A stretch of DNA of 58,102 nt, filler included, from Dugesia japonica (taxonomy: Eukaryota): assembly GCA_001938525.1 (NCBI GenBank). It is 5 parts of 5 records of this genome, joined end to end, with 100 filler letters (N's around TTAATTAATTAA, not from the genome) between each part and the next. Parts side by side here need not be neighbours in the genome. Positions count along the whole stretch, not along the records: positions 35,133 to 49,435 come from MQRL01577807.1; positions 49,536 to 58,102 come from MQRL01498894.1; 3 more parts are not named here. One strand, 5' to 3'. Made by a program: the position numbers and the translations under genes. This document shows positions 3,951 through 56,900 of this stretch, piece after piece (the stretch's first letter is position 1; the number at the start of each line of letters is the position of its first letter). The notes beneath the pieces were generated by a model that was not told where the DNA came from, ran no database searches, and saw nothing but the letters and a program-made list of their open reading frames with translations.

Positions 3951-4445
3951 TTAATATTTTTGCGGCCGATATTTATTTCATACTTTGTCATACTTAAACA
4001 CTACAAGTGTGCTTTATATAAAACAATCGTTGCCCGAAATGAGCGCATTCACTATTGCATTGTATCCATCCTATACTGTAGAACCTTGAATGTATGATTT
4101 ACCAGACAGATATATTACAGGGGCAAGTTTCACCATAATAAATTGCAGTTCTAATATTCTTTTAATTTTTTACTTGCTGCTGAGCTCTGAATACATTTGT
4201 TGGGGTTCCACCTGAATTGGGTTGAGAAAAACACGGCTGGGGAAAAACAGCACTCAGAGGACCCTTCCAAGAATTTAACCTAACAACTCTAAGTTAGGCA
4301 TTCAGCATATAGTGGTTGANNNNNNNNNNNNNNNGAGTTGCACGTCCATATGCCTTTGAATTTGGGTTCACTATTTTTCCTATTATCCCGAATTTATCAA
4401 AGGTTAGAATGAGTTAAACAATGAAAACTTTATTTTATCTAATAA

Positions 4446-5520: not shown

Positions 5521-5863
5521 TTAGTTAGTGGTTGTGTCAGTGACAGGAACGGTGTTTTCGGGATCCTCAACCCCGTGGGTTCCCTAACACCCCATAGTAA
5601 ATTCGTGATAAAAGCTTGCACGACTGGGGATGGGCCGGAGGTTGGTAAGTAAAAGGTGTGGCGTGGTTACGCACTGGTCCATTCCATAGTTGAAAATTCA
5701 GCCTCTCTCCAAAGTTCTGAATGCGAGCTACTGCGGCTTCTACAGGAGGCAGATTCGATTGATCCCCCAAGAAACCTGCATCTCGGTTATTTGGATTATG
5801 GGGGCGCCTGAAAATTATGCGGCGAGTTCTTCGATCGACCACCCGTTCCCATATGGATTCCAT
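5521..5863 (-). pseudogene. Element ORF2 (copy A), frameshifted in its 3' third
   Basis: MESIWERVVDRRTRRIIFRR...SNLPPVEAAVARIQ matches B and C. The LLWGVREP tail lies in another frame. Confidence 0.8.
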
Positions 5864-5988
5864 TTCTAATCAAAATTAATAGTAATTACTACTAAACCAT
5901 AATCAAAATTTATATAAGTATATATGAAATGAAACGTGAAACGAAATAACGCAACATTTAATTAGTAAGGAATTTATTTATTCAGATT

Positions 5989-20349: not shown

Positions 20350-21509
20350 TTTAGTTGTAACATATGATATGTCCGAATTTAATAACCTATTTTTAAGATA
20401 ATCAAAGTCAAGTAATAATTAACACGGAAATTATTTATAAATCATTTTAAAGCTTGAAATATGGATTATCTTTATATAACATTTGTTTTAAAATAACATT
20501 TTATAAAATTTTTTTGAAAGCATGGAAGAAAAAGTAACAAATATGGAAATGCGTACCATTTTTTATATGAATGGAAATTGAAGCATAATGCAGCAGAAGT
20601 AGACGACCTGGTCTCATCATTAAAATTGACAAATTATTATTCCAGGTTGAGCTAAATACAAGTCAATCAGTTAGAGAACTTGCAAAAACGTTCAAAGTTA
20701 GTGGTCAGACTATCTCCCGTCATTTAAATGAGATTGGTAGGAAGAAAAAGATGGACCAATGGGTTTCTTATTTTTGGAATAAATTCCAAAAATTTCAAAG
20801 ATTGGATTTTTGCCGAAAGCTTTTGAAGCGCCATGAAACAGATTTTTTCTTATATCGCATCATTCCGTGTTATAAAAAATTGGTTATTCATCATAATTGT
20901 AGACGTTCTTCTCGATGGTTAGATGCTAATGAAGCTCCGTTACACTGTCCAAAACCAGATTTGAATCCGAAAAAGACAATGATAACAGTTTTGTGGTCTA
21001 TGGCTGGTGTTATACATTATTCTTTCTTAAACCAGGTGAGCCTATTACCTCAAACAAATATTGTTCTGAAATTGAAATAATGTATTAAAAAGTATGCATT
21101 AAACAACCATCAGTGGTCAACAGTAAAGGAATCACCATGTTTCATGACAATGCCCTCCACCCATATGTTGTAAAGAAGACGTTGCAAAAGCTGATCAACT
21201 TAAATATTGAAACTTTGCAAAATTCGCCAGACTTATCACCAACCGATTATCATTTTTTTAAGAATTTAAATCATTTCATGGATAAAAAAGTTTTAGTGTT
21301 CCGGAGGATGTCAAAGCTACCATATCCGATTTCATCGACTCCAGAAAGTCCGATTTTTATGCTAATGATATTTTAAATATAGTCTCTAGATTTCAGAAAT
21401 GTGTAGATTATAATGGTGACTATTTCATTTAANTAAAAAATGATTTCATTGGACTTTTATCAAATTTATTGTCTATTACGTAATCGGACATTTTATATGT
21501 TACAACCTA
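20350..21509 (+). mobile_element. Mariner (DD34D-type) transposon with pseudogenised transposase (~20522-21431)
   Basis: TIRs GTTGTAACATATGATATGTCCGA / TCGGACATTTTATATGTTACAAC. HTH SVRELAKTFKVSGQTISRHL, FHDNA and SPDLSPTDYHFF motifs; frameshifted. Confidence 0.92.
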
Positions 21510-21710: not shown

Positions 21711-23019
21711 ACTCTTCTTCTTCATCAGTTCCTCCATCCAAGAAGATCCGCAAAGTTTGATTTTACCTTAGTACTGAACATTAATAACTTTACTTAGTGA
21801 TCTCTTTGTTTGTAAATAAAAATATAAAATATAAAGTGTTTTTTGATTCATTGACTTAATTCAACACTAATGCTTCTATTGCCACGAAAAATAAACCAAA
21901 AGAAGATTAAGATGGTGAGCTCATACACTCCTAACGATGGGTAAGAGTAATCGGAGCTGCCATCAACGCAACTGAAAGGGGGTTGCATAAAATTCTCGTT
22001 TACGGGTTGTGGATAATGTTCCTGCTAAGCTGCGCGCGAGCGCTCGCGCAGCTTGTTTGATGTCTCAGCGCAGCTAAATTTATTCTGCGCGCAAGAACAA
22101 TTCTTGTGATTTCTGATGAGCCCTATTTCTTCTAATTGATTACATTTGTTCTTTGTGAATCAAAATATTTTTAGTCTTGACATAGTTAAGTTTAGAATTT
22201 ATATGTTTGATTTAATGGCATTAAATCTAATATGATGCTATAGTCCTCTCAGCAAGAAGTTTTATGATCTGGATAATAAATATTTAGTAGAACACAAACC
22301 AAATGTCAGCATATGATGATTTCCAGCCTCAGAGAAAGTATTTTAGACTGCTTCAAATCCTCGTGGTAATGATGCATGGCTTGGCGCGGGAAGTGGGAGT
22401 GGAAAGCTGTATATGTAAAAGAAGAACTATGGAGGGATAATATTCACGTCGCTGCCTTAGCTTGCTCAGTCACACAGCTGCTACTTATCTGAAATGGCTG
22501 TATGCCACCACTGGTAAATTGACATCTCCTGTGGGTTTCTAGAATATAAGACCAGTGATAGTAATTGAGACACCAGATCTACTCTCCTTCTTCTCTTTGG
22601 TAGACCTTGATTAATGTCAGAATTTCTGACTTTAATTAATGTCTTCCGTATGGAAGGAGAAGAGAAGATCTGGTGTCTCAATTACTACCATTTGCCTACT
22701 AGTCGCTAGAGTAGTAGAGTTAACATTGTAAGGTAATTTTAAAANNNNNNNNNNNNNNNNNNNNNNNNNNNNNNNNNNNNNNNNNNNNTTAATTAATTAA
22801 NNNNNNNNNNNNNNNNNNNNNNNNNNNNNNNNNNNNNNNNNNNNAAATCCTTAACAACTCGTCATCAATACGTTAGGCTGCACTTCTGAAATAGCAATAA
22901 TGGCCATCATCTGATAATGAGTCCATGGATACCAAGTTTTGCATCATAGCTTATATATATATATATATATATATACACTCGTTTAAATTTAATTTTTTAA
23001 ATATGGAAGTCTTTGTTAC

Positions 23020-23700: not shown

Positions 23701-24579
23701 TTATAATGTTCAATAAAATGTAAACTATTGATATATTTTTCATTTACAAATCTAAATTTTCATAAATGTTAAGACTACTAAGCAGTGATAATTGTTTAAA
23801 AAAAGTAACATAATATCAAAAATTTGTTAAAAATTTTCATTATTATTTATTATTTCATTATTATTTATTTTCATTGGTAAAAAAAATTCAAATTTTTTTT
23901 AAAGGTAAAAACGAATGCTCTAATGACACATGCGTGATTAATTATGACTTCATGAAATAATGACAGAGGTATCATGCAAGCAACTAAGTCAAATGATACA
24001 AAATTCAGTTGAAAAACAAAAAGAAAAAGAAGTCAACTGACAGACTCTTATTCCATTGCTAGTTGGAAAAATTGACAGCAGCACTTAATTGAAGAATTAT
24101 AAATCCATGCATTTGGAGTCTAATTAATTTCTGAATCATTTTATAAACAAATTATCTGAAAGATTTTGTAAATTCGAAGATATTACCAAAAATCAAGAAT
24201 TATTAATTCTAACCAAAATTTTATAAATTTGATCATGATAAATAAAATAAATTTTTCCAGGAAAAATATTCCCACATAATTAAACTGAGAGAAAAAAAAC
24301 TAACATTTAAAACAACCATTCTATCGATTCTGTGGATTAGTTTTAATTATTTTTTAAAGATTAAAAAATAAATTATAATCCTACACACAATTTTCCCTAA
24401 AGAAAATACTACTGATATTCATTAGTAGATAATATTAATATATAATTATACTAGGTTTTAATTTAATTCCGTATTTATGGCTGGTTACGGGCCAGTAATT
24501 AAACAAAACCCAATCATGACATAATACATTACAATATATTAGTTTCTTCTGTATTAAAGAATATTTATTTCAACTAAAT

Positions 24580-25967
24580 ATGAAAATAAAATTGAGAGAA
24601 ATTTTATTCATTTTTCAAATTCCTTTTATCATTGGTAGCAATGTTACGTTAAAAGTAAATCAATTACCAATACGCATTAACTTCGCAAATGAATTTCCTC
24701 ATAACATTTCGAAATCGTTTTTTTTTTCTTTAAAAAATATAAATGAAGATTATAACTACCAATATTCTGAAATTATAATCAAATTATTATCTAGAAGTAA
24801 AGAACAAGAAAATTTTATTGTTCAACCGTTTATTTCCGATAATACTAAGAAGAAATACAAAGGAAAATATTTTTCATACAAAANAATAGTGATCAATCGA
24901 TTTTTTACAAATTTTACGATAAATTTCCATGAGAAAGCACAACAAGGATTTATTGAATTGATATTTATTTTGAATAAGGAAAAAAACGAAAAGAGAAGTT
25001 CATTTACGATTTACAAAAACAGAATTTTGTTGGAGTTTATTTCAGTTTTACAATTGAAAATTTTGAATAATAATTTAAATGAAAATTCTTTAATGATTAA
25101 TAAAACGGCAACAATAAAATGCCGGTTGATAAAATCATGGCAAAAATCAATAGTTACCATCATAACATCAAAACCACTGATTATTGTTAATAAAGGTTCA
25201 GAAATGTCGAGTGAACAAACGATTACATTTATTCCATCGGAAAACAATGACAAAATGAAAGTTATTTGTTATACGGCTGAATTAAAACAAGAAAGAATTG
25301 TTCGAGTTTATCGTAAGTATTGGTTTTTTTCTTTTATTATTTACAATAAAATTAAATTGATTTCCAGACCGTTCAACGTCAGTAGAGATCAAACCGGCAA
25401 ATTATTATTATTTAGAATTTGGAGATTTATTGGAATGTGTAAATACGGGTGGCGGTTATCCAGAACCAGAAATCAAATGGAAATTATCTACAAATTCTCA
25501 TAAGAATTTATCGGATTATTTCCAATTCACAAATTCAAATAAAAAAGCCTATTTACGTGTACTAAAAGCAGCACCGGAAATGAGTAAGTGGTCATTTGAA
25601 TGTTCAGCCACTAATTATCTACCTATCAAACAAATTGGTGAAACAAAACAGTCGATACAATTTACCATTACAGAATTGTCTACAAATTCTCGAAATTTAA
25701 GAAAAGCAGTTTATTTGCCAATTTCTATACCAATTGTTTTATTAATTTTATTAATCTTCAGTTTAATAAATTTATGTAGAATGAAAAAGAATACCAGAAC
25801 AAAACGTTTTCAAATGAAAACTAAAGAGTAATTGATTTTAGTGTTAAATTTAAAGTTTTAATTTTAAAAATTTTCCTAGGGAATTAAGCAGGATAAGAAA
25901 AGAACGATTTCTAAAGAAAACTAAAAAGTTTAATTTTGTTTTACCAGATGATAATGATAATTCATAA
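24580..25967 (+). CDS. Immunoglobulin-superfamily type I membrane protein; exons 24580-25312, 25368-25827, probable 25880-25967
   Basis: Signal-peptide-like N-terminus. Ig-like ATIKC...ITFIPSENNDKMKVIC. A 55-bp phase-1 GT-AG intron leads into LECVNTGGGYPEPEIKW...FECSATN, then a TM segment and basic tail. Last exon less certain: unspliced stop at 25829-25831. Confidence 0.8.
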
Positions 25968-38000: not shown

Positions 38001-38712
38001 TAAATGAAAAAAAAATATAAAGCCTGGTTTAAGGCTTTTCTCTTCAGGATATTGAAATTCATCGTCTTTAGAATCAACATACCAATTTTCATCATCTGAT
38101 TTCTCTTCTAAATCGAAATATTCTCTTTCATCTTCGCTACTAATAGGCCTTGATTCATTTTCCATTAAATTTCAAATTTGTTTGTTCATTATTCTTATAA
38201 GTATATTTAATTCGATTTAGTTTATATTTTCTAAAAGTTAGTATTATTTTTTCATATATTTTTTATGATTTTATAGTCACATTGGATTAAAGTTTAAATG
38301 TTTATTTCTTACTTTATTTTAACCAGTTTTTGTATAATTAAGCCGGACTTTCCAATATTTTGCACAATTTACGCTATTTTACCATATGCTCCATAAATTT
38401 CTATATTTTACCCTGTTTTATCGATTTTATTTTTATTTTATTTTAATTATTTCTTTTATTATTATTGTTGGGGTTCCACCTGAGTTGAGTGAAGAAAATG
38501 TGGCTGGGGAAAATCAGCCCTCAGGGAACCTTTCCAAGAATTTAACCTAACGCCCCTAGGTTAGGTATTCAGTTTATGGTGGTTGACCTCTCGCTTAATG
38601 GGAGGTGCGCGCCCATAGGCCTTTGGATTTGGGCTCACTACTTTCCCTATTACCACGAATTTACTAAAGGTTAGAATGAGTCGAACAATAAAAACTTTAT
38701 TTTACATGAAAA

Positions 38713-38911
38713 TTATATGAGATCAAATGCACCCGGGTCTAACCACTGGGCTGGATCGGTCGTCAAAAAGTTGAACGGCGCCGAATCGTCATTATCGTCC
38801 TATTGGACCCATGCAGAGTTTCCTAGTTGACGGGAGAGATCGGCAATATACTGTTTTAAAAATTCTATTTTGCGTTGCAACAGTAAATTTGTTTCTTGTG
38901 TGAGAGCCTTA
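38713..38911 (-). pseudogene. Element ORF4 (copy B), 3' part; 5' part lies in a gap
   Basis: KALTQETNLLLQRKIEFLKQYIADLSRQLGNSAWVQ*DDNDDSAPFNFLTTDPSQWLDPGAFDLI*, with a premature TAG. Confidence 0.75.
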
Positions 38912-39204
38912 NNNNNNNNNNNNNNNNNNNNNNNNNNNNNNNNNNNNNNNNNNNNNNNNNNNNNNNNNNNNNNNNNNNNNNNNNNNNNNNNNNNNNNNNN
39001 NNNNNNNNNNNNNNNNNNNNNNNNNNNNNNNNNNNNNNNNNNNNNNNNNNNNNNNNNNNNNNNNNNNNNNNNNNNNNNNNNNNNNNNNNNNNNNNNNNNN
39101 NNNNNNNNNNTCGGCGACAGATAGGTCAATTAACTAAGCAAAAGTGATAGAATTAAAAAAAAAACATTTTAATATCAAAACATTTATTTAGGCAATGGCA
39201 GATA

Positions 39205-39651
39205 TTAAGTTCTCGAAGCCTGGGTACCCTTGTCAACTATCAATGGTTCGAGGGGCATTGCAGTTTTCAATTTGTGAATATCCTGAACCAGTTTATTCTC
39301 TCGGTCTTGGTAGGACCGGATAATCTCAGTGAACGACTCTAATTGAGCCTTCCAGATTCTCTCTTGCTGGTGGGATGCTTCAGCCTTGGCTTTAAAAGCC
39401 AAACATTTCTTTTTATAACGACCTATTTTGGCCTCAGCAGATGCTGTACTGGCCTCCCATCGCCGTTTTGCTAGTTTATATAGGTCCCACGTAATTTCGG
39501 CATCATCAATGGACTCTCGCATTTTCTTGGTTGGTGCAGTAGCGCGATTCAATGAAGAGTGCACTAGAAGAAAACGAACACAATACAAAGCCTTGGTGAG
39601 TAACACCGAATACTTACATTTATTGTTACCCGGTGGACAACTAACTATCAT
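39205..39651 (-). CDS. Element ORF3 (copy B), open; possible 54-bp intron 39617-39564
   Basis: Uninterrupted HSSLNR...KRRWEA...IIRSYQDRENKL...VDKGTQASRT. Consensus GTAAGT donor and ttcttctag acceptor in phase 1. Confidence 0.75.
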   Translation of the reverse strand: MIVSCPPGNNKCKYSVLLTKALYCVRFLLVHSSLNRATAPTKKMRESIDDAEITWDLYKLAKRRWEASTASAEAKIGRYKKKCLAFKAKAEASHQQERIWKAQLESFTEIIRSYQDRENKLVQDIHKLKTAMPLEPLIVDKGTQASRT

Positions 39652-39805
39652 TAATCTTAGTTTTAATATATGACAACTTCGGAATAAAAAGATTTAGTGA
39701 TAAGNNNNNNNNNNNNNNNNNNNNNNNNNNNNNNNNNNNNNNNNNNNNNNNNNNGGAATAATTAGTAATTTTATTTTAACACACAACAAAATTAATAGGA
39801 ACACA

Positions 39806-40153
39806 CTAATGGGTAAGAGTCGAATCTTTCACGGGTGCCATATTCTCTGAATCCTTGCTACCCGAGGGTTCTCTTACACCACATAATAAATTTTTAATAA
39901 AAGCTTGCACCGATGGGGGTGGGGCTACAAGTTGATAATGGAATGTCGTGACAAGGATTCGGTCCGGCCCCGTCCAGCTCTGATTATTTTGTCGTTCGCC
40001 AAAATCCTGGATTCTGGTGACGATGGCATCTACCGGTGGTAAGTTTGATCGGTCAGACAAAACACCTGCGTCGTGGTTATACGGATTCCTATGTCGCGGG
40101 AAAATTATGCAACGAGTCCTGCGGTCGATTACCCTCTCCCATATTTATTCCAT
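39806..40153 (-). pseudogene. Element ORF2 (copy B), stop at codon 3
   Basis: ME*IWERVIDRRTRCIIF... otherwise one open 116-codon frame. Confidence 0.8.
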
Positions 40154-40521
40154 TTCTGACTGAAAAATTAAAATTACCATCAACATAATACGATATTCGT
40201 AACATCAATAAATATAAAACAAAAGTAGTTAAATAATAAAAATAAGGGTAATCAACACTGAATTTTATTTTATGGTTCATAGACAGGTTCAATATCCAGG
40301 TCAATCTCCCAAGAGAAGGGATATAGTTCCTTAAAACACCTTAAATCCATTTCATCCCGGGAGAGAACAAGATGAGGGAATAGGAGGTGACCAATCAATT
40401 GCTTACGACGGGCCTGTTCTCTTTCTTGACGANNNNNNNNNNNNNNNNNNNNNNNNNNNNNNNNNNNNNNNNNNNNNNNNNNAAATAATAAAAATAAGGG
40501 TAATCAACACTGAATTTTATT

Positions 40522-40719
40522 TTATGGTTCATAGACAGGTTCAATATCCAGGTCAATCTCCCAAGAGAAGGGATATAGTTCCTTAAAACACCTTAAATCC
40601 ATTTCATCCGGGGAGAGAACAAGATGAGGGAATAGGAGGTGACCAATCAATTGCTTACGACGGGCCTGTTCTCTTTCTTGACCAATTAGGTTCAACGTCT
40701 CCCTCAGGATTGTAGCCAT
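40522..40719 (-). CDS. Element ORF1 (copy B), 65 aa, open
   Basis: Homologous to copies A and C. ttaattcag acceptor 4 nt before the ATG and AATAAA right after the stop. Confidence 0.7.
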   Translation of the reverse strand: MATILRETLNLIGQEREQARRKQLIGHLLFPHLVLSPDEMDLRCFKELYPFSWEIDLDIEPVYEP

Positions 40720-43700
40720 GTGCCTGAATTAAGAAATCAAAAATCATCCCAATGACAATAAGTTATTGTGGGATAATTCGGTGGTTCCTGAAGGTTAGTT
40801 TAGTCGGCTGGTTTGGCTAAGTCTATCGACGATCCTACGAGCTTAGTGCCTCATCAATCCCGCTTTGCGGAAAGTTTTCGGCCTACCGATGAACGTTTAA
40901 TTAATAGTCATACTATTAAATATTACCAACAAAACGCTGACAATCTATGTATTAGTAAGGGTTTTTAATGCGAGTACTAATGTCACCAGAGCTACCGTCA
41001 ATCGGGTTAAGATGAGTAATTTTAATTGGGATGATAGTGATACGTTGATAATAATATGAATTACGTCAAATGTAATATTAAAGATTATAAAATTGTTACT
41101 CAGATTGCTAAGGAATAAATATTGCGACAGGAATAAATATTAGTGCTGGTAATGAGATGAATCGTTGCAATAATGTTAACAATGTTCTTATTACTAAAAT
41201 TACAAGGGAATTATAATAACCCAATTACAATAGCCATTTAATTACCGGCGAGATTATTTTATTATTAATTTGATGTCTAGGCTCTACCAAATAGACCAGA
41301 TGCCATATTGTGGTGAATAAAACACTGCATAAGGTGTCACTAATAATGTTATTAACAAAGGAGAAAGTCAGGGCTAATGAAATATTCTGTTGAATTAATT
41401 CTGGGTAACATGCCCTTAATGTCAACTCTTACAAAAGTGGAGTCTGACTTGTTGATGATTATCCAACACGATAAGGGATGAATCAGAAATAATATTCTTA
41501 TTTTGCAGTAATATTCCACACTAGTGGTGACAATCTTAGTAGATTCATGGACATCAATGAATTCGTATCTTCCTATTGCTAAATGGTGTGTTGGATAGCA
41601 AATAACAATTTATACGCAGAGGGTTGGTATATAGATTATGGAAGAGTTAGTGATTATTACACACCTGCTTCTGAATCATGGATATTTTCCTATCGGACGC
41701 GTTTCGATTCTGATATTAATCATGAGTGGAGTGTAATTTGCTGCTGTTTTGTTAGAAGGGCTAACCACAACTCATATGCGGAGGAATTCAGGTNNNNNNN
41801 NNNNNNNNNNNNNNNNNNNNTTTTTGAAATTAATGATCAAAATAAATTAGATGAACGTTAGGTTATGCAGCAGGTAAAATTAAATTTACTGTTATTTGGC
41901 TTTAAAAAGTATATATAAATTTTTTCTCATTTGATCTTATGAACATATATAGCATAATAACTTATCGAGTAAAAAAATAAGTTTATAATTTCCACCTGTG
42001 GTATTTATTCACCAGCAGCATTTAATGCCTTTCGCATAAATTGAAAGTAAAACCAATTTTCATGTATAATAAGATATATNNNNNNNNNNNNNNNNNNNNN
42101 NNNNNNNNNNNNNNNNNNNNNNNNNNNNNNNNNNNNNNNNNNNNNNNNNNNNNNNNNNNNNNNNNNNNNNNNNNNNNNNNNNNNNNNNNNNNNNNNNNNN
42201 NNNNNNNNNNNNNNNNNNNNNNTTTTCTTTGGGGAACAATCAATTCAAATTTATAAATTAAAGATGTTACTTTATTAGTTTTTTTTCTAACTATTGGCGA
42301 GAATCCTTCGCAATCGTATCAGAATTATTTTAATACTCGAGTAATGCGATTGACACAAATGGATAAATAAAAATTGAAAATTGTTGTTTTTCGTTTCAAA
42401 TCAAGGGGGTTTAAATATCATTTTACGAGACACCCCAACTTGTTTGGCATTGGTCTGCTATTTTTAGTTTGAATCTTCCGTACTTGATTGATTTTGATGA
42501 TAATTTTCTGTAATTTTTTTAGAGTTTGAGAACTCTAATTGGCAGTTATTTTTAAAACCTCATATGATCGATTGTGCTTTGTCTTGTTTTTATTTTCTGA
42601 ATNNNNNNNNNNNNNNNNNNNNNNNNNNNNNNNNNNNNNNNNNNNNNNNNNNNNNNNNNNNNNNNNNNNNNNNNNNNNNNNNNNNNNNNNNNNNNNNNNN
42701 TCACTCTTCTTGAATTTTCTTGCGCTGAATTCCTGTGATTTTCTGGAGCAAAGTTATTCTCATAAAATGAATTTTGGCCTAATTTTAATTTATTTTAACC
42801 TTTAATTAATTCATATTTTCTTTATAATTAATTGTTTTGGTTAATAATTTTCTTGCTTCTTTAAATAATAATTTAATAATTTTCTTTAANNNNNNNNNNN
42901 NNNNNNNATTATCCAGGTTCATTGTTATAGGCTTTTCTTATGTTGCTCCCTATTATCATTAATTTCCGACCCGGTCTGATTTTAGTACTTGTTTTTAAGG
43001 TTAGTATTTTTTCCCTCATACAGTATTATTCTTCTCCTTCTTATGGTACTTGCTGGTTTAAGACCCTCCTGGTCTAGTTTTTTCGTTGACTGGGTGTTTC
43101 ACCCCAACATTATTTATTTTTTATTATTATTTATTTTATTATTTTATTAGTCGAGTATTTATTCGAAAAATTATTTTCGTCTCTTTCAATAAATATTTAA
43201 AATTATTTCAAATTATCTAATGCTTAATAAAAATGTTCAATTATTATAATTAAAGTTTGAAATGAATTTTTCATTATTTTCATTAAGGTTAAAGATTGAC
43301 GATTTTTAATGATGTTATTCTTACGTAGCATTAACTTCTCTATCTAATAGTTACTTTGATGCTTAAATTTGAGTTAAGCTTCTATTTTCATTAATACTCG
43401 ACTCTTATTTAAAAAACATCATTTAACTATTTATTTGAAAGATTTTTCTAAAATTAATGTTTTTACATAAATTCAAGTTGTATATACTTTACTGATAATT
43501 ATTTGAAAATTATTAAATACCCCATACTTAATCTATTTATCTATTATGAGTTATTTCCAACAATTGTTTAGAAATTATTTTAATGAATCAATGCTTAATA
43601 AAAGTTTTCTATTATAAATTAAACATTAATTACAAAATACATGCGAAATCTAATTTTATTTAAAAATATTTCAAAGTTTCATCAATAATCAATAAACCTT

Positions 43701-46700
43701 TAATATTATAATTTTAATTTAACCATAAAAATATATATATAAAATGTAATTTATTTTCTAAATTACCTTTAAAATTTTATTCAAAACATAATTCAATTTA
43801 CTAATAAAAGCAAAGTTTTAATCAAATTAGCTATTGAAAATTAATCAATTCACCATACTTAATTTATTCAATCAAATATATGGATTATTTTCAATAAATG
43901 ATTATAAATTATTTCAATGAATCAATCTTAATAAAAAATTCATATTATAAATAAAACTTCAATTAAATTTTAACGATAAAAATAGAACACTAATTAAAAT
44001 AATTGAACTAAAATAATCTAGAAAACTAAAACCATGTTGTATTGTTGTCTGAAGATTGGTGAGTAGATAAATTTTATCCAAATTTATCTAAAAAGCTACC
44101 CAAAATTGACCTTACCCAATAAATTATCATATTTTTCTGTTCCTCGGGGACTCCAAAATTAAGCACTTGTTTTTTCAATATGACTACTTATCTATACAGT
44201 TGGTGATTTTTAAACCGTGTTATCCGTACTCACCGTAAAACATTCTATCGAATAGTATTAATTTCGATAAATTTTGAGGAATTCTTATACTTTCAAAAAA
44301 TGTTACCAAGTCCGGGAGGACGGCTGTACATATTTGTTAGGAAGCATTTTTACAGAGACGATATTTAAACTTTGTACAGTTACTTTTTCCTCCTGAATAA
44401 AATAATATCAAATTTGAAATCATACGAGTTATGTACGCAGAGAAAATTGAGTTCAAAAATTCAAAATTTGAGATTTTTTCATGACAAAACCCCATTTATT
44501 TCATCGAGTATTAACTTTAGCAATTTTAGGTTAACATATTTGGAATCAGCGAAAAAGTCTCTATAGAATAGACACTATTGGGGTGAAACACCCGTTAAAA
44601 AGGGAAAAAAGGTAGAAAAGCCGAACCAACCGAAAGGAACGGCAAGACCATTATCAATCGTGAAACATAGAAGGCAATGCATGAAATACAACAAAAAAGA
44701 ATGAAATAAAATCGAAGAGGAATACAGAGAACCAGGTGAATAAAATTAGCATAAATCAATATTGGGAATTAAGGAGAATTATTAAATAGTAATAAAAACC
44801 AAGAAAATCGGTATGAAAATAATTAATTAACAGAAGAAAAATAATGATTAATTTTAAATAAAAAAAGAAGCAAAATTAACAAAAACATTCGTTTTATCCG
44901 AATAACTTCGCTCAAGGAAATCAAAAAGAATCGGGGTAAAAAAATACAGAAAGAAAATATCGAGATGCAGTTGAAATTACTAAGAAGAAAAACTTACCAC
45001 CTTCCAGAGGGTTGCTGCAGGGTCCTAAAAATCGAACCAATTAGAAATCTAAAAATAAAAATAAAACAAAGACACAATTATCATATGTCAGTCCAAAAAT
45101 AGACGCCAATGGCAACTCTAAAATTCTGAAAAAATTTAGAAAACTGGCACTGGAACCAATAAAACCAGAAAACGTTGATCTAAAAATAACTAACGAATCT
45201 GGAGGAAGTTGGGGTGTGCAGAAAATCATATAAAAATGACCCCTGAATTTAGCAAGAAACAGACTAAAAAATAATAAAACGAACTACAACAAACTTTGAT
45301 AAATTGTGAATTCCAAAGCACATATTTGAAATCGGAAAATTATCAAGAAAAAGAATAATATTATACTAGTTAACTTAGAACGAGGAAAATTGCACTCCAA
45401 CGTACAGGGAAATCAAAACAAAGAATTTACTTCGAATCTAATTGAAAGGTCGTCACTCAAAAGCGGAAGGAAAAACCTTAATCTTGAATCAAACCCGTTG
45501 CAGAAATTCGTCAATTGATATTAAATAAAATATTTATTTTATTATGTAAAGAATTGCATGGTCAGAAAATTTTGATGTTATGTATTTCTAATAAAATATG
45601 TATATTAAAATTTCAATTCATTATTTAGTCAATTAAACGTATTAATAGATAGAAAATAGACTACTGTGACTTTGAATGATAGTAGACTCGTAAGTGACAT
45701 TTTACGGTAAATTCCTTGTAACGTTCATTAAATTAAAGAAAGTATTAACACATAAACATCTAGAGACCCGGTTAATTGAGATCTAAACAAATTTATGCTT
45801 ACCTGTGGGGTAAAAGTATAAACCAAAAATCGAATACGTCATAGTTTTCCTTTGCTAAGATTGTGAGTGAAAAAAGATAAAATTCCAACAATTTATTTGA
45901 CAAAATAATAAACTATTTCAGTTATATCAGAATCATAATAAATCCACAGATTTTAATGATAAGCGTCCACTAATGTGTCGATCACTGACTCTGATCGGTT
46001 GAATTCTACTGATATGGAATGGCCACATTTTTTGTCATAGAATAGAAATAACTATCGCATTTCATAATTATGTTTAAAGACAGTGAATCATCACCTAAAA
46101 TTATAACTGCCAATAGGTTGTGCATGTGCACCAACCCAAAAGTCATACCATTAGAATGTGTACTCATAATGATGGCTGGATGTGGTTGTTTAACTCTGTC
46201 CTCGCAACCCTACAAGAGACTAATTCTATGCACACCTACATGTTGCAGATCCATCTAATCGGTTGTCAAGGGGATAAAATCACCATGCAACGGTGAAGTG
46301 TGGAGGTTTAAAATAGAAAAAATTTTATAATTATTATAAATCTCATAATTTATGATTTTCTTATTATTAGATTCATTATTTTATTACTATTAATAATTAC
46401 CTTATTGTAGGTCTAATTTCACGACAATCATCATATACCGTCAGTGTTGGTATTAGTGGTTTAACCAGAGTAAAATCTTCCCTTTATTAAAATTGAATAA
46501 AATTCAAGATTATGATTACTATTAGCCGCTGGGGTGCCATTCCTGATGTCAGAATTGTTATTCTTATGTTTTGAGCACCATGGAGAATATTTTTCTTCCG
46601 TTATAGTACTAACTCCCATATGATTCGGGTTCGGTTGTTTGATGTTGCGGTGCAACTTATTATGGTTAATCGTCGATAATGTTTGACGAACTGTCATTTC

Positions 46701-46860
46701 CTTGCCCGAATCATTCTAATCCAAATTAATATCATTCCCTTAAATATTATCTTTTAATGAGGTACACCACATGGTCATATTAAGGGTCTGTGGTTACTTT
46801 TCGTTTTTAGGGAACTCAGTCATAAGTCGAGAATGGTGATTAATGACTTCATTCTTTAGC

Positions 46861-47043
46861 ATGCCCGCAGAATTATATCAAACCATACGGTGGATTAGAA
46901 GGCAACGACAAGTTAGTTGGACGAAACAATTGATAGCGCACCTATTGACCCGAGGAAAAATAGAGCATCCAGACGAGACAGATCTTTGTTGTCTAGTTGA
47001 AATGTTCCCCTTGAACGATGGAGTAGATCTAGATGAAGAGTAA
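46861..47043 (+). CDS. Element ORF1 (copy C), 60 aa
   Basis: KQLIAHLL...PDETDLCCLVEMFP aligns with KQLIGHLL...PDEMDLRCFKELYP. tttag lies 1 nt before the ATG. Confidence 0.65.
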   Translation: MPAELYQTIRWIRRQRQVSWTKQLIAHLLTRGKIEHPDETDLCCLVEMFPLNDGVDLDEE

Positions 47044-47179
47044 CCTTAGTTGGTTGATTCCCATACGATAAAATAAATTGTATAAAAGCTTACTTTGTTT
47101 CTAAATTGTTAACTTAAATTGTTTTTCATTTTAAAATTGTTCTATTTGAATTTTGGTACTTATTCCGTTTTTCTTGGCT

Positions 47180-47528
47180 ATGGAATCCATCTGGGGACGA
47201 GTAGTCGATCGGCGGACTCGCCGTATAGTTTTCCGTCGACATCACAATCCCCACGATCGAGACGCAGGAATTCTGTCCGACAGATCAAATTTACCTCCCG
47301 TCGAAGCTGCTGTAGCCCGTATCCAGAGCTTCGAGGAGCGCTTGAGTTTTTCTTCAGTGGAGTGGGCCGGAGCGCAATCATGCTACCCCGTTCCGGTATC
47401 AACCCCCAGCACCCCCGCTAGTAGTGCAGGCTTTTATTGAAAATATGCTATGGGGAGTTAGGGAACCCTCCGGGTCGGAGGATGCCGAAAATTCAGCTCC
47501 TGCCGAAAACATTACTCCTGACCCTTAA
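47180..47528 (+). pseudogene. Element ORF2 (copy C), one frameshift
   Basis: 349 nt versus 348 in B. MESIWGRVVDRRTRRIVFRR... / VQAFIENMLWGVREPSGSED. Confidence 0.8.
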
Positions 47529-47732
47529 TGTACAACATGTTGTGAACTGATTCGTTTAATAAATGAATGTTTTAATTAGTCTAAACAAGTTTTCTTCAGT
47601 TATTAGTTTTAATGAACAAGTCACTTTAAAATCACTCTATTAGATTTTTATACCTTGAATAAGGTTGTATAATTGTCAGTAATTCAGATATTGATGTTCT
47701 GAGAGAAAAGCTATTACCACCTTTTATTTTAG

Positions 47733-48111
47733 TGCATTCCTCCTTAAATCGTCCCACAGCTCCTACCAAAAAAATTCGAGACACTAGTGAGGACAATGAA
47801 CTCACTTGGGACTTATATCGTTTAGTAAAACGACGCTGAGAAGCCGACGTGGCAGCTGCCAGTAGTAAAGTCTTCCGTTATAAAAAGAAGTGTGTTCTCT
47901 ACAAAAAGGAAGCAGAGGCCTCCCACCTACAAGAGCGTACCTGGAAAAGCAGGTGGAATCTTTTTCGGAAATTATCCGGTCCAGCCATGACCGAGAAAAT
48001 AATCTGGTTAGCGATATCCTGCGACTACGAGAGAGCATTCCGCTCGAACCTTTAATGATTGACAAAGCACCCAGACCCGCGGAGCTAGCTACGTTCATGC
48101 TTTATAAATAA
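47733..48111 (+). pseudogene. Element ORF3 (copy C), with a stop and frameshifts
   Basis: HSSLNRPTAPTKKIR...KRR*EA.../ESFSEIIRSSHDRENNL...PLEPLMIDK. Confidence 0.8.
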
Positions 48112-48187
48112 AGTTATTATTAAATTTTTCTAGTGTAATTCGTTAATATGTCAATAATCATTCAAAATTTTGTAAATTAATATAATA

Positions 48188-48583
48188 TTGCTTATTTTAG
48201 TGCCTCACACCAATTTCCCAAATAGCATCCGCCGATGTCACTGTATATTGCGCCGCCTGTTGACAGAGCGACATCTAAAACGGAAGACAGATAAATCTCT
48301 ACTAAGACACCTAAACCAACGGGATAGGCTAATNAAAAAACTCGACCATATAATAAAGAAACAGGGTGATCTAGCCATCCAAACTAAGGCCCTGGAAACT
48401 GAAACCAAACAGCTTTTACAAAGGAAAATAGAGTTCCTAAAGCAGTATATAGCAGACCTTTCCCGCCAGATTGGTAATCCTGCCTGGATTCATTGGGACG
48501 ACAATGATGACGTCGCCGCCTTTAATATTACCGTCACCGATCCAACTCAATGGTTAGACCCAAGGGCTCTGGATTTAATATAA
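48188..48583 (+). CDS. Element ORF4 (copy C), open frame; start uncertain (TTG, or spliced at 48200/48201)
   Basis: Colinear with 4446-4844. AATAAA downstream. Confidence 0.7.
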   Translation: MLILVPHTNFPNSIRRCHCILRRLLTERHLKRKTDKSLLRHLNQRDRLXKKLDHIIKKQGDLAIQTKALETETKQLLQRKIEFLKQYIADLSRQIGNPAWIHWDDNDDVAAFNITVTDPTQWLDPRALDLI

Positions 48584-51500
48584 ATGTTTTAGTAAAATAA
48601 AATGTGTATAATTGAGATCGTGTTCCTTTTCATGAATTATTAATAATAGGGAAAATAATGAACCCGAATACAAAGGTTTGTGGGTGTGCACCTCCCATTA
48701 ATAGACAGGTCAACCACCATAAACTGAAAATCTGCCCTGGGGCGGTAGATCTAAATTCTTGAAAGGGTTTCCCTGAGGGCTGTTTTTCCCCAGCCATCGT
48801 TTTCTTCATTCAACTCAGGTAGAACCCCAACAGACACTTTATTAAAATATTTAAGAAGAAAAATATTTTCGAAACATTTTTATCTGTGTAAAATGATCGC
48901 CGTAAAATTTTAAGCAGTTTGGTATTAAAATCTTTGAAATCTGAGATATAGAACATATTTTTTCAAAACTTTAGATGGTTTACTCAGACTACCAACAAGA
49001 CTTCATTTAAAAAATTTTAAATTCTCATACTATTTAAACAACATGATCGGTTTGTCTAGATTCTTTTAAAATATTCCCATTTAAAATTTTTAAAAACTGT
49101 AAAATTTAAAAAAATTCAACTTTTATCATGAATTTCCTTAAAATTCAACCCAAACTGACCAATCCTATAGAAATTATCATTCGAATTCTCCTAATACTTA
49201 CCCTTGTGAGGAAATAATTAACCAAATCGTCCAAAACTGACCAAAACAGACTAATGTGAGAAATATTCGATCAATATTACCTAAACTGGGTAAAAAAAAT
49301 TGACCAAATTGTCCAAAACTTAACCAAATTAACCATTCACTGAGGAAATAATTGACCAAATTAACCTAAAAATTACTTTTGTGAGAAAATAATTAACCAT
49401 TCCCGAGAAAAACGTTGATCGAATTTACCTAAAACNNNNNNNNNNNNNNNNNNNNNNNNNNNNNNNNNNNNNNNNNNNNTTAATTAATTAANNNNNNNNN
49501 NNNNNNNNNNNNNNNNNNNNNNNNNNNNNNNNNNNAATTTTATAGATATCTGAAAATCATAGCATGGATTCTTTAAAAAGCATGAGTTTTTTGAATTTCT
49601 ATATTTTTCTAATAGCTAATTTCTTAATTATTTTTATTAAAATAATTCAACAATTTATTAATTCTTTATTTTATTTAATTGATTACATTTTAGATTCAAG
49701 AATGTCCGAGGGAATGGAAAATCTATCATTTCAAGAGAAAGTTCAATTATTTGAATTTGCAATTAGTCGAAGTTCTCATTAAATATTCGATTGTTCAATT
49801 ATTCAATTATTTTTTATTAAGTAGTTTTCATTGGTGATTAAATTGTGAAATTCTTTTTGACATGGTGTTATGTAATATCATTAGAAACTGTAATGAAGTT
49901 GTTCACTACTAATAGCCACCACCACTACCACCACCATATCAGCATTTAATAATTAATAATTTATTATCATCATCGTCATCATAATTAGTTGAAAATTTTA
50001 TTATTAATTTGTAATAATCGATTGTGGGTGGCCTTATTTAGCATTCCATTGATTTTAGATTTTTTATGTACATTTGTCCCTCTTTTCTATGTTGCGTTTT
50101 AGTGTTTGTAATTCAGTTTTTTAAATTTTTTTATTGTTCACAATTTTTCAAATGAAATTGTTGATCTTTAATTTGGGATCTGTTTTTTCTTATGCAGTGG
50201 ACCGATTTTTTTAATATCATACATTCGTATTGATTTTGTTTTTTTTTATTTTTTTTTCAATTTAATGTGATTAATTGTTAAATTATTTCTGATTACTTTT
50301 TAATAACTAGATTCAATTAAAATTGATTTAGATAGCTTAACTACTCACAAAACAATAAGTTATAAAAAATTTAGCATTTCTCTCTTTGAATGTATGTTTG
50401 ATCTCAATTATTAATTTCAATAAATAGAGCTAAAAATCTAATTCTAAAATGCTTTTATTTTTATGTTGGAAAATTTATTGAATTTTCGACAGTTATTTCT
50501 CAGTTGAAAATTAAAAAAAATCTCAATGTTAGACTCTACAATTTAATTGATCGGAGAAATATATACTTTTTGAGCAATTGACCAGCACTTCACATCATTC
50601 ACTCATGCATTCACCTATTATCAGATACATTATAAATTTATTCCATCAAATGTGTAAAGATCAATATTGGAATATTATATAATTCGCAGTTATGTCACAT
50701 AATTACTGTTAGTTAATACAACATTTTTTCCAATAAAACTTCATTCATTACAAAACTTTGATCATTTGATTTTATTTACTTTCTGGCTGAAATTACATTT
50801 CCTCCATTTTCTTAAATTCACTATTCAAATAAACGTTTTGTAATATGTTAATGTTTATTTTTAAAAAATTAAATTAATATATGTTGGGCTAGAATGCCTG
50901 AATAACGGGAAAATACGGGGTTAAAACGTGACTGATTGAGTAAATCAAACGAGCAGAAATTAAGAAATTTGATATACTGGACCAGAAAATTTGATTATTA
51001 TAAGTATTATTATCATTATTATTATATTATTATTATGGGTATAATTATTATGAATCTACTATAAAAGATCCGAAAATGAAAATTGGGCGCAAAGAACTCT
51101 GAGTTGGATTATCAAGATAATTTGTTAGAGAAATACGACAAGAAGGTTTAGATAAATAGTAAAAATCATCTTCTCTATGATATTATATTAAAGGGGCCTC
51201 TATGACCCTAATTATTTATTATATTAACGGTAATTTCCGTTTAATATTATTATAATCTCTTAATTAATGAAATAATCTGGTCCAGTCATTGTCTGGTTAG
51301 GGTTAATGAAGTCTAAAATTAACAACAAAATCAGTGAATCACCCTAAACCAGACAAAGAAAATTGATAGCAACCACACCAGTCACCCGAGGTCACACGAG
51401 GTGACTGATGACAACAAAATCACCAACAGTGATAAGGAGCCATACAGTCAAAGGAGCAGAATTAGGAATGGCGGTTATTGATTGGCCGGCTAATGAATAC

Positions 51501-51759
51501 CCGCAATCTGTAGTTGGAAAGAGTGAATAAAACTGGAATACTCAGCAAAAATAGACACTCTTTCACAATCAATTTTGTATTATTTATTAACCTATTGCAA
51601 CTTGTAAGAATTTCGTCTATTTGCAAATTAATAACATTTACCAGTGGAGAAAATCTAAGTATTAAAAAAGTCATTTTTAATCATATTGCTAATATTATTA
51701 TAATGTATGCCTTACATGCTCGAGTGTTCTAAGAAGTCGGATGGTCGTGCTACCATCAA

Positions 51760-52110
51760 TGTTGAAACAAATTATATGAAAATTCCAATGAATTAAAATA
51801 GTGAGACGAAATAATATGATCGCAACAAGTTGCTGCAAACTTCCAGAAATAATTGCAAACAGTTTAATGCACTCATTATCATCTATGTTGAAATAAATTA
51901 TATGAAAAATTCCAATGAATTAAAATCATGAGACGAAATAATATGCTCGGAACAAGTTGCTGTAAACTTTGAGAAATAATTGCAAACAGCTTAATGCACT
52001 CATCAATATCAAGATTGTAAAAAATTAGATGAAAATTTCTAATGAATTACAATCGTGAGAAGAGTAAATGCTATCGGAAAAATTGTTATAAAATTTGAGG
52101 AATAATTCTA
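51760..52110. repeat. ~126-bp tandem repeat x3 inside element D
   Basis: Units start at 51760, 51886 and ~52013 (TTCCAATGAATTAAAAT...GAGACGAAATAATATG...); the third is more diverged. Confidence 0.8.
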
Positions 52111-52912
52111 AAATATTCAGAGGAACAAAAAGCGAGAGCGGAATGAAGGTTGTCGGACACAGTATTACTAAATTGAGACAAATGTTATGAGACAAATTAA
52201 TAGAATTGGATTGCGATAATGCAACATTAAAGTGAAATATCTAGAAAAAAGAAAAGATATAAAATTATAATGAGTTGAAAGAGGTGACACGGAATGATAG
52301 AGGTCAAACGGCTGATTAAATGAGACGGACCTGCTTGAGGGAACAAATGAATTTAGATCAAATTTTTATGAGTAGGATGGGAGCTCGATGATTATGATTT
52401 AACTTAGATAATAAAAAAATATGTTGTGCAACTTAATGTCATAACTTATTTTTAGTTTTTTTTTCTTTTTTGGTATTTTTAATTGGAAAATTTGGATAAA
52501 CTTTATGTTAATTTTTTCGCAATGTATCAATTTTAATTTTACAAGGAATTAGAATAGTATCATAAATATGCACTTCTTTTTCTTTAGTTTTGACATTTAA
52601 ACATGCAAGCAATTGAATTATAAATTGAGTAATAAATAAGTCTTAAATTAAAAGATTCAAAGCATCTTTACTCCATGATGAACTAAACATATCTTACAGA
52701 AAATATTAAGGAATTTAGAAGCAGAGCTTCACACTAGTGGTGACTAGAAAAGATGATTGCTTTAGTAGGCACCTTCTCTGGTCCGTACTATAGAAGCAAG
52801 GGGACCAGAAATGATAGGCTGCATTCCGAAAAAACGGAAACTGGTTATAATCTTTATTTAATTTATATTTATTGATTGAGTCGGAAAAATACGTAATTTT
52901 ATATTAATAGAA

Positions 52913-53317
52913 ATGACAGCATATTTCAAACCCCACATACTACTAGTGCTCTCAAATGACGGCGAAGAAGGAACCTTCTGGATCCCATGGCGAAAAACAG
53001 TAGAGCTATTGGACGACCAGAAAGCAATTTATGAGAAGGAGAAACAGGAGATGAGAGCAGGTCAGCAGGAGTTAATGAAACGCCACCTTGAGCTGCGGCG
53101 GCAATTGAAAGCAGTCAGTGACGACACAGAGAAGCGCAGAGACGGTTGGATTTACAAACAGTGGCCCGAGAGCTCTCAACGGCAACACACCATATGATTG
53201 ATCACCAATTTTTGATGAAACAAATGGAGAAAGTGATTTTCAGGCAACTGATTGATGACACTGGGGTCATGACCGAAGCATGGGACCCAGTGTGTATTAA
53301 AATCGAATCTCTGTAGG
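52913..53317 (+). pseudogene. Element D coiled-coil ORF, probably frameshifted
   Basis: tag|AA ATG context as in family-1 ORF2. 94-aa ORF plus an out-of-frame continuation to TAG, then AATAAA. Confidence 0.55.
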
Positions 53318-53617
53318 AAATAAAATAAATGTATTGATGTTGTGCAAGTGTCGACTTTGTTTGTTTGTTTGTTTGTTTAATTACGTGATATGTATGTCAC
53401 GATGTTGATTTATTTTTATCATAACGACCTGCAGAGGCGGCGAATAATTTAATTACGATAGTAATTTAGTTTTAGTGAATGAAAGTTTTGTTTATGTTAT
53501 TCCTAAAAGTGGCGGAGTGGAAAATTTCCATTCTCATAATTAAATAATGATAATAACATTACTGATAATATGCTATAATTACTTTTACATGCATTCATCA
53601 TAATAAAATTATTTTAG

Positions 53618-53927
53618 TGAACAAATCTAGCGAGGAAATGATCTAGAAAAATGATGAGATGGCTGCACAGAAAAAAGGAAGGACGAGAGGCGCGAGTTGC
53701 GCAATGAAATAATGAATCTAAAGGGGCAACTGAATAAGTCGTCCAAATTGAAAGAGAAGGAGTTGGCTCTCCAGCAGACCAATTGTCTCATGGCCGATAT
53801 CATCAAGATATACGCGGACCATGAAGCTACAATTTTCCACACTCTGCGAACCTTGTGGTTAAATTATCGATCGTCGGAAGAGTCCACTGATACAGCGGAC
53901 AATACAGTGGACCTGGATGCACTATAA
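53618..53927 (+). pseudogene. Element D ORF3 homolog
   Basis: ttttag|TG start. ERRELRNEI...KEKELALQQTNCLMADIIKIYADHEATIFHTLRTLWLNYR, then AATAAA. Confidence 0.7.
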
Positions 53928-56900
53928 CCAGTGGAGAAACTGTAAATATATAAATAAACGTTAATTGATGTTCATTGAGTTGTTCTGAATTACGACTGTG
54001 TCTGGTAAAGTAAAATCATAAGTGTTATTACAAGCCGAATTTCAACTGAGCATTTGAGAAAAATTGTTGTTGGGGTTCAAAAATTTAGTGAGTAAGACGC
54101 GATACCACAAAGTCGCGTTGAACCCAGGAAAGATAGGGGCATGATACAGAGGTACTATAAACACTTGGGGTTTTTAGGTGTGCCTCTAGACATTATAGTG
54201 AATTACTAAATTTGAAAGTGAGATCAGAGAGTTATAGAGAATAATTTAAAGATCGAAAGCCTAAAAACCCAACATATATATTTTTTACAAATTTAAGATA
54301 TTAAATATAAACTCTATAATAAATTTAAAATTTATTCAAAAAATATTTTCATGTTAATTTAACAAATATTTTAATTTAATATTAAATATTATAATTTAAC
54401 AAATATAATTTAAGATTTGATAAGTTTTAGAATGTAACATTTATATTTAAATTTATCATTAACCTTTACAATTTCGAAGGTAATTAATTTTATTAGTTAT
54501 TTAGGATTTAAATCCACTCTTTAATTAATACAACTTTAAAATCTATTCTAATTTAATTTTAGAATTACATTCGAAAATTTACCAGTAAATTTTAAAAATC
54601 ATTTTAAAACTTATTTTTAAAAGGTTTAGAAATTCCCAACGTAAAAATATCTTACAGTAGCAATAAGTACCAGATAACGAAATCTATCTTTGATACTTTT
54701 ATCAATAATAATTTGACTGTAAATCAGAAAAATCAATATTCGACTTGCTTCTCTTTTGTAATTATCAACAGACTATAAAATGTAGTTTGGAGGCATTCAA
54801 AACTCTCTTCCAAGAAATGAAGTCATTCAGTTTGTTGGGCTGGAACACATCAAGAAATACAAAATGAGACATAAAAAAATGTTGAAAATAAATGAGTAAA
54901 ATAAGGACAACAGTGGGCAAATTGGATGTTCTGGACCAGAAAATCTATTATCATGAATAAAATTATCATTATTATTATATAATTATTATTATAATCATTA
55001 TGAAATTATTTATGAAAATATCAAAAAAAATCGAAAATTGGACGTCAAAGACCCAAATGTCGCCGCATATGAATGAAAATTATATCAGATAAAAGAGAAT
55101 CACGAACTAAATAATAAAAATAATATACAATAGTATAATAAAATGTTAAAGGGCTCTCTGCGACCCGTTTTATTTATTATAAATAACGCTAATTAGCGTT
55201 TAATATTATTGAAAAGTTAATTAATTTTGGTCCAGTCATCTTCTTGCCTTGTCTGAATCTGATGATAACAGTTGCAAATAAACAAGGAAACTGATTATTT
55301 ACCGGGAGTCAGACAAGGACTTTCCATGGAAACCAACAGATTCATCAGAGGTCACATGAAGTGACAGTCAAAATTTATCAAAATCCGAAAAGTCCGAATT
55401 TGTGTGCAAAAACACTGAGATACGCACACCAATCTGGAAGGCCGGAGAGAGAAAATTCAAAAGGATTGGTTGGCTAATCGAGGGCCAGATTTTCCGTTCA
55501 TCATCTTTAATAAAACCCGGCTAATCGAAGAAAAAGCACCACTTTTTTAAAACAATTTTGTTTTAAAAAAAATTTTTTAAATCGTTTTATCACAAATTTA
55601 CTGTTTGTTATAACTATTAACGGGTCAGGAGGAACCCAAAAATCATTTTATTTACAACTGTTAAAGGATCAGGAGGAACACAAATTCATTTTATTACAAC
55701 TTTTAACCGACCAGGANGAAAACAAATCAAGTAAATTTTACTTAATTTAACTAACATTTTGTGACTGTTTTTCCGAGTGTCCATATCGAGATAGTGTTTT
55801 ATTTACTGGTATGATGCTATGGATGATCGTGTTCCCGAACGAGAAATATTATGATCACCGCGAGAAATCTTATGAATGGAACGAGAAATATTTTGGCAGA
55901 AAAGCGCAATATTATGATCAGAACAAGAGAGCTTCTGAACCGAATGAGAAATATTATGGATAGAAAGAGAAACAGATAAATTACGTCCAGGAAAGCGACC
56001 AGAAAATTCATCCGAAAAGTAATCGAGAAAAAGTATAATATAGCAAAAAATGACGTGCCGACAGTGCTCTAAAACAGTAATCTGGAGAGTGAATAGAAAA
56101 GCACTCAGAAGCTATCTATCATTGAGAGAAAAATTGCGTACTGAAAAGTAATATTTACAGTAATCCAAATCGAGAGAGAAAATTGAGTGCAGAGAAATAA
56201 ATTTACTGAGGAAGGTTTGGCATGAGCGGCGGTTATGATAGGTCGCAAATAGCTCGGTCGGAATCAGGCAGAGAAAGCTCGGTTTATGTTTTGTTGTAGA
56301 ATTGTGTTACTGTCTGGTATTTTATCTGTATACACATTTATTCGATGCTACTAATTAATGATTTTAATAATACTTAGTTTAAATTGATTTCTTTGGATTT
56401 TAACGTTTTATTTTCTAAATTTTAATGTTTAGTCGAAATAGAATATTCACGATTGATAAATAATACCTAGCGATTGAGCGTTATATTTTTCTTACTCGGC
56501 GAAAATCGCGTCGACACTGGACGATTAAGTAGATTCAACTCAGAAATTCTATAATGAATCAACTGTCTAACAAATGTTTTTGGAGGGATTATAATCCACA
56601 ATCTCCAATCATATGAATGATAAAATTCGAATTAATTTGTTGGCTANNNNNNNNNNNNNNNNNNNNNNNNNNNNNNNNNNNNNNNNNNNNNNNNNNNNNN
56701 NNNNNNNNNNNNNNNNNNNNNNNNNNNNNNNNNNNNNNNNNNNNNNNNNNNNNNNNNNNNNNNNNNNNNNNNNNNNNNNNNNNNNNNNNNNNNNNNNNNN
56801 NNNNNNNNNAGTAGGGCGAAGAGCTCGTCTATGTGTAATATTTTGTCCAAAATGTTTAACAAATTTATCTTCGCTTTATGTTTTGCTCAATTTATAAATT

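Follow-up and report, generated by a model that had tools for sequence, protein, structure and literature searches.

The window analysed here is a 58,102-nt stretch of Dugesia japonica DNA, in which five AT-rich eukaryotic scaffolds (GC 0.19–0.39) are joined with N linkers between them. It contains three copies of one mobile element (A, B and C, family 1) and two elements of a second family (D and E). The block that the original prediction had described as a conserved structured region is exactly the final 193 nt of the mobile element. The elements, together with the parts of copy C on which the analysis centres, are:

44576–48832, plus strand: copy C of family 1, 4257 nt, with a 5-bp target duplication; likely a solo LTR
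48833–48837, unstranded: target-site duplication of C (partner at 44571–44575)
48633–48832, plus strand: conserved terminal block and best-conserved tile, the putative R/U5
48824–48832, plus strand: 3' short inverted repeat of C, which fits YNYAACA (as given in the available part of PMC3601003); likely an integrase attachment site
48596–48601, plus strand: AATAAA, lying 236–237 nt ahead of the 3' end in A, B and C alike
46840–48583, plus strand: four small ORFs in a row, broken in C, most then followed by AATAAA
4198–8227, minus strand: copy A of family 1, 4030 nt, with a 4-bp target duplication
4198–4397, minus strand: terminal block of A, including 15 N
38466–43109, minus strand: copy B of family 1, 4644 nt with N gaps, with a 4-bp target duplication
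38466–38665, minus strand: terminal block of B
50882–54274, plus strand: element D of family 2, 3393 nt, with the same kind of ends and a 4-bp target duplication
from 54833: element E of family 2, truncated, with the same kind of ends

The last ~200 nt had been proposed as the best-conserved block, and this was borne out by comparison of the copies: among 22 tiles along C, the last 200 nt rank first in identity for both A–C (0.75) and B–C (0.81), and they tie for the best tile between A and B (0.83). The identity of the terminal tile exceeds that of most coding tiles, and the first 200 nt of the element reach only 0.54–0.59. All three copies begin TGTTGGGGT (with one change in C, which departs there from the TG start) and share the 3' terminus ACCCCAACA. 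Target duplications of 4, 4, 5 and 4 bp flank A, B, C and D, respectively, and the Metaviridae end motif TGTTRNR...YNYAACA, as given in the available part of PMC3601003, is matched at the 5' end by three of these four elements and at the 3' end by all four. The terminal inverted repeat is just 7–9 bp long, the first 20 bases matching at 11–13 positions. Moreover, five RNA reads (run X12, one of four runs) join position 44570 directly to 48847, so that the flanking repeat must exist elsewhere without element C. Copy C sits inside this other, abundant repeat (44300–44572 and 48847–49400), which is well represented in RNA reads, and a piece related to it lies at 755–997. The interior of C attracts next to no RNA reads at 85% likeness. 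Two pattern scans of metagenome contigs for further copies gave no matches, and 15 of 15 matches to viral contigs were rejected as chance 18-mers without extension.

The family-1 element is most likely the solo LTR of a giant Gypsy-like retrotransposon. In the LTRs of animal Metaviridae (Ty3/Gypsy), R/U5 is better conserved than U3, and stem-loops are named as a cause (available part of PMC3601003). The block resembles such an R/U5 in the TGTTRNR...YNYAACA ends, in the AATAAA placed before the 3' end and in the conservation of the 3' part; the element differs in that the LTR is 3.4–4.6 kb long and carries small ORFs, and the available text of the same source does not describe the P1, P2 and P3 fold presented below. 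Burro/GYPSM1, a planarian giant Gypsy-like element, measures over 30 kb in total with up to 25 kb internal (available part of PMC6431247). It compares well in its implied multi-kb LTRs and in its very AT-rich animal genome, although the likeness is one of description, not of sequence, and LTR RNA structure goes unmentioned in that part of the source. Every copy ends in a target duplication, and none in the window adjoins a primer site, a polypurine tract or gag-pol, so we infer LTR status and orientation rather than observe them. We regard A, B and C as dead recombination leftovers, so that some of the broken pairs reported below are likely to be later decay. The pairings considered for the block of C are:

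48730–48750, plus strand: P1, a 7-bp hairpin with a variable loop, from folding and pair comparison
48765–48770 with 48822–48827 and 48772–48777 with 48814–48819, plus strand: P2, the terminal stem, enclosing a variable 17–18-nt linker
48778–48795, plus strand: P3, a 5-bp hairpin nested inside P2, its 8-nt loop nearly invariant, with read variants at 48779 and 48781
48675–48683 with 48717–48725, plus strand: an alternative 9-bp helix, overlapping the 5-bp GCCCA/TGGGC stem
48662–48685, plus strand: the 5-bp GCCCA/TGGGC stem, unsupported as a helix common to the copies
48649–48655, plus strand: a purine run complementary to the P3 loop (48784–48790), a possible but weak kissing or pseudoknot pairing

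Folded singly, A, B and C are each predicted to form the same P1, P2 and P3, with mean pair probabilities of 0.67–1.0 for the main helices. The ACCTAAC/GTTAGGT stem, for which compensatory changes had been claimed, is P1, and it retains seven of seven pairs in all three copies after alignment by hand: relative to B, C carries two double changes plus a G-U, and A has one G-U. The hand register is needed because the loop is 7 nt in C and 8 nt in A and B, and MAFFT misaligns it. For C versus B, five random changes would keep all seven pairs with a chance of 0.022, and would do so with two or more double changes with a chance of 0.010, both figures being uncorrected for the choice of helix. The GCTG/CAGC hairpin within the terminal stem was likewise recovered, since P3 is predicted inside P2 in each copy, although neither helix shows double changes among the three genomic copies. 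The second stem said to covary, GCCCA/TGGGC, was not confirmed: B and C do differ there by one double change, yet two of the five pairs are broken in A, which had been left out of the original account. The overlapping 9-bp helix has nine of nine pairs in both A and C, where two double changes are seen, and seven of nine in B; the ensemble of C favours it (0.94) over the GCCCA/TGGGC stem, which is absent among the C helices above 0.15 probability. With the 5-bp stem broken in A and the 9-bp helix broken in B, the 5' half of the block is without a settled fold. The P3 loop could form seven pairs with 48649–48655 in all three copies (in a shifted register in A), a contact that 10–12% of shuffles also allow. 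Two GAACCC-like motifs (48661–48666 and 48822–48827) can each pair with 48765–48771, and together they possibly constitute a two-state switch.

The expectation that the block would fold better than dinucleotide-shuffled controls failed for the block as a whole: over 193–195 nt and both strands, z was −0.34, −1.19, −0.49 and −0.95, none of them significant. Only the last 70 nt of C pass, with z −3.2 (2 of 150 shuffles); the corresponding values are −0.7 in A and −1.6 in B. In a scan of the element in 59 tiles, none scored below this segment of C (z −2.9). When the sequence is folded as DNA, z falls below −2 only in B. The two strands have similar z, and each of them forms P2 and P3. The terminal unbroken helix is 6 bp in B and C and not unusual (331 and 342 of 400 shuffles), a non-significant result for two copies whose stem is interrupted. 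Nor was significant covariation obtained from the three-copy alignment, in which no measure beat shuffles (161–393 of 500, with P1 of C misregistered); in the RNAalifold consensus the covariation term is positive (+3.67), with double changes in 2 of 51 pairs. Paired columns are variable in 5 of 40 cases versus 12 of 41 for unpaired ones (p = 0.10), and the one-sided changes speak for the sense strand by no more than 4 to 1. The broader claim of a selected RNA or single-stranded DNA structure is partly supported: selection on P1–P3 has moderate, not formal, support, one of the two stems said to covary fails in A, and the whole block folds no better than its shuffles.

RNA reads from relatives of the element provide further variants of the same helices. 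Summed over four runs, 63 of the 65 reads carry a change at position 48779, and 45 of the 65 carry one at 48781. Run X17 has a loose-end line of 8 reads (agreement 0.69) in which both P3 pairs are, on inspection by eye, restored, G-C to A-U and U-A to C-G, and the 3' arm of P2 reappears beyond an unrelated linker; in the X17 upstream line (9 reads, 0.75), the arms at the position of P1 differ yet still pair. By counts, the chance of such pair-keeping is 0.012 and 0.045, and the two helices scored had been chosen in advance of these reads. At this same place, the loose-end line of X15 (6 reads, agreement 0.64) leaves P3 unrestored, so pair-keeping changes are found in one of the two lines among those listed. 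These are majority lines, which mix families and carry no phase information, and the reads, which occur in both mate directions, give no strand.

The second family also has a structured end. The end of D aligns locally with the family-1 block no better than shuffles do, and it folds at z −2.3 to −2.9, with a helix that none of 400 shuffles matched:

54168–54179 with 54259–54270, plus strand: 12-bp helix reaching the terminus of D

The family-2 end is richly structured over 54040–54274 (z −2.56), and the TGTTGGG motif recurs internally at 54068, where it offers the D terminus another pairing partner. The idea that D and E are the paired LTRs of a single element was rejected, as they are 71% identical and D has its own target duplication.

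Protein searches with the small ORFs of the element returned no family at E 0.001. A Pfam scan of four family-1 ORF pieces gave only sub-threshold coiled-coil matches and no transposase family, and ORF3 did not align with a family-2 ORF. ORF2 opens with an arginine-rich stretch that is kept in all three copies. Its positions, and those of the splice acceptors checked, are:

47180–47440 in C; 5567–5869 in A (minus strand); 39806–40144 in B (minus strand): ORF2, no family found
47731 and 48198 in C; 5311 and 4832 in A (minus strand); 39567 in B (minus strand); 53612 in D; 57612 in E: splice acceptors

In both families such acceptors precede the last ORFs, and all seven of those checked are followed by TG in phase 1. 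The last ORFs behind them have no ATG there, so the first codon base must come from a common exon further upstream; were that exon to end in A, the start codon would arise through splicing itself.

Taking these observations together, we suggest, with a probability of roughly 0.6, that the block forms the conserved end of what is likely a solo LTR of a giant Gypsy-like element, and that it likely serves as a folded R/U5 leader ahead of the primer site. In RNA made from the 5' LTR, the block would lie directly before the primer binding site. The predicted order is P1, an invariant unpaired spacer, and P2 enclosing P3 and the variable linker, with P2 predicted to join the LTR's terminal bases to a stretch 50–70 nt upstream and to leave the final 2–5 nt free. 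P2 would then fall on the first bases copied after priming, the end of U5 being placed at the base of the stem beside the primer site. By analogy with the U5 stems of retroviruses and Tf1, the fold may control the start of reverse transcription, and the invariant unpaired motifs may be protein or tertiary contacts.

The small ORFs of the LTR lie behind splice acceptors, which means that unspliced RNA must escape splicing, and this raises an alternative modelled on HTLV Rex: the block could be a response element for an RNA-binding protein encoded by the element, or a spacer fold for 3' processing, with an arginine-rich protein from the LTR binding the fold and exporting unspliced RNA. The arginine-rich start of ORF2 in all three copies and the invariant P3 loop fit such a scheme, as does the location of the HTLV-2 RxRE within R/U5 (available part of PMC3434621). 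Further likenesses to HTLV, from the same part of that source, are a multi-stem RNA of ~200–250 nt in the LTR beside AATAAA and small accessory ORFs, one of them arginine-rich; there is, however, no homology to the Rex response element, and the element studied here is not a vertebrate retrovirus. We consider this alternative unlikely, given that neither homology nor a fold link to Rex/Rev was found for the ORF proteins, that binding is proposed by analogy, and that P2 extends to the very end of the LTR, as suits a role at the primer site. The block is a new RNA class only if the link to an accessory protein holds. An invertebrate Gypsy-like element with the control circuit of a complex retrovirus, in which a row of LTR accessory proteins, one of them with a Rex/Rev-like arginine-rich motif, act on an R/U5 RNA whose pseudoknotted fold would also turn the primer site on or off, is a doubtful proposition. 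Conservation could also act on the DNA, through the integrase attachment site or through promoter or polyadenylation elements, the stems being incidental. This would accord with the non-significant z of the whole block, with covariation no better than in shuffles and with the p of 0.10 for paired versus unpaired columns; P2 and P3, being nearly invariant in the three copies, say nothing about pairing, and the P3 loop repeats the purine-run motif in the opposite orientation, as in a possible DNA-binding site. The pair-keeping changes in P1 and in the RNA reads, the linker and loops that vary between fixed arms, and the 12-bp terminal helix of family 2 make this explanation improbable.

If the orientation were reversed, the ORFs would be antisense and the block would be the U3 end beside the polypurine tract, with the fold on the other strand or in single-stranded DNA. 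That both strands can form P2 and P3, at comparable z, and that reads occur in both directions, is compatible with such an arrangement, which we nevertheless find quite improbable: an AATAAA lies 236–237 nt ahead of the end of the block, the ORFs run in the same sense, and the conserved end of the element is this one and not the other, as reported for R/U5 in the available part of PMC3601003. Little credence is likewise due to a non-autonomous cut-and-paste element of the Ginger type with subterminal DNA palindromes. Ginger1 does have TG...CA ends and 4-bp duplications (available part of PMC6839031), and no full-length LTR element was seen in the window. However, the inverted repeats are 7–9 bp here versus 100–150 bp in GingerRoot, conservation is strongly asymmetric between the two ends, and no integrase-like DDE transposase was found in the four family-1 ORF pieces scanned, although a non-autonomous copy could lack one. 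The short inverted repeat, the position of AATAAA and the poor conservation of the other end thus suit a solo LTR better. Finally, a stand-alone ncRNA or self-cleaving ribozyme, the former having been offered in the original prediction, is very improbable. Related sequences are indeed present in RNA libraries, but the fold ends exactly at the end of the element, and no Rfam match in the window reaches the gathering score (best E 0.29–1.3 near the block). CUGANGA, the hammerhead core motif, is absent from both strands of the last 260 nt of the four elements, and an ARAGORN run was negative.

Maps of cis-acting RNA structures exist for retroviruses and for yeast Ty1/Tf1. For the folded R/U5 leader that we favour, the closest parallels are the stem-loop called U5-IR in retroviruses and Tf1 (available part of PMC3601003) and the 5' pseudoknot of Ty1, which is required for efficient initiation (available part of PMC4974528). 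As in U5-IR, a stem is predicted at the end of U5 in A, B, C and D; unlike it, the stem here includes bases of the attachment site. No sequence likeness would be expected, and a shared role is proposed by analogy. Structured U5 leaders are already known, and for giant flatworm-type LTRs they seem to be undescribed. The full-text literature within our coverage, which does not extend to Grohme 2018 and its supplements, yielded nothing combining planarian, LTR, RNA secondary structure, retrotransposon and covariation, and a related search returned the GingerRoot paper alone; among the nine flatworm rows of supplement 2 of PMC13524379, the six Schmidtea rows give no LTR or primer site. If diverged families of giant LTRs do share a fold, it would offer a way into the start of reverse transcription in these 30-kb elements, and would also serve as a structure-based marker for diverged solo LTRs.

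The window contains several other features. Tandem repeats occur within both family-2 elements, a 127-bp one in D (51751–52107) and a 21-bp one in E (55838–55984). A reverse-transcriptase fragment lies at 2970–3371 and a broken mariner-type transposase at 20589–21376; an RWD-domain exon (10965–11447) and an immunoglobulin-domain gene (24520–25831) are also present, and an 81-bp inverted repeat is found at a scaffold end (22542–22704).
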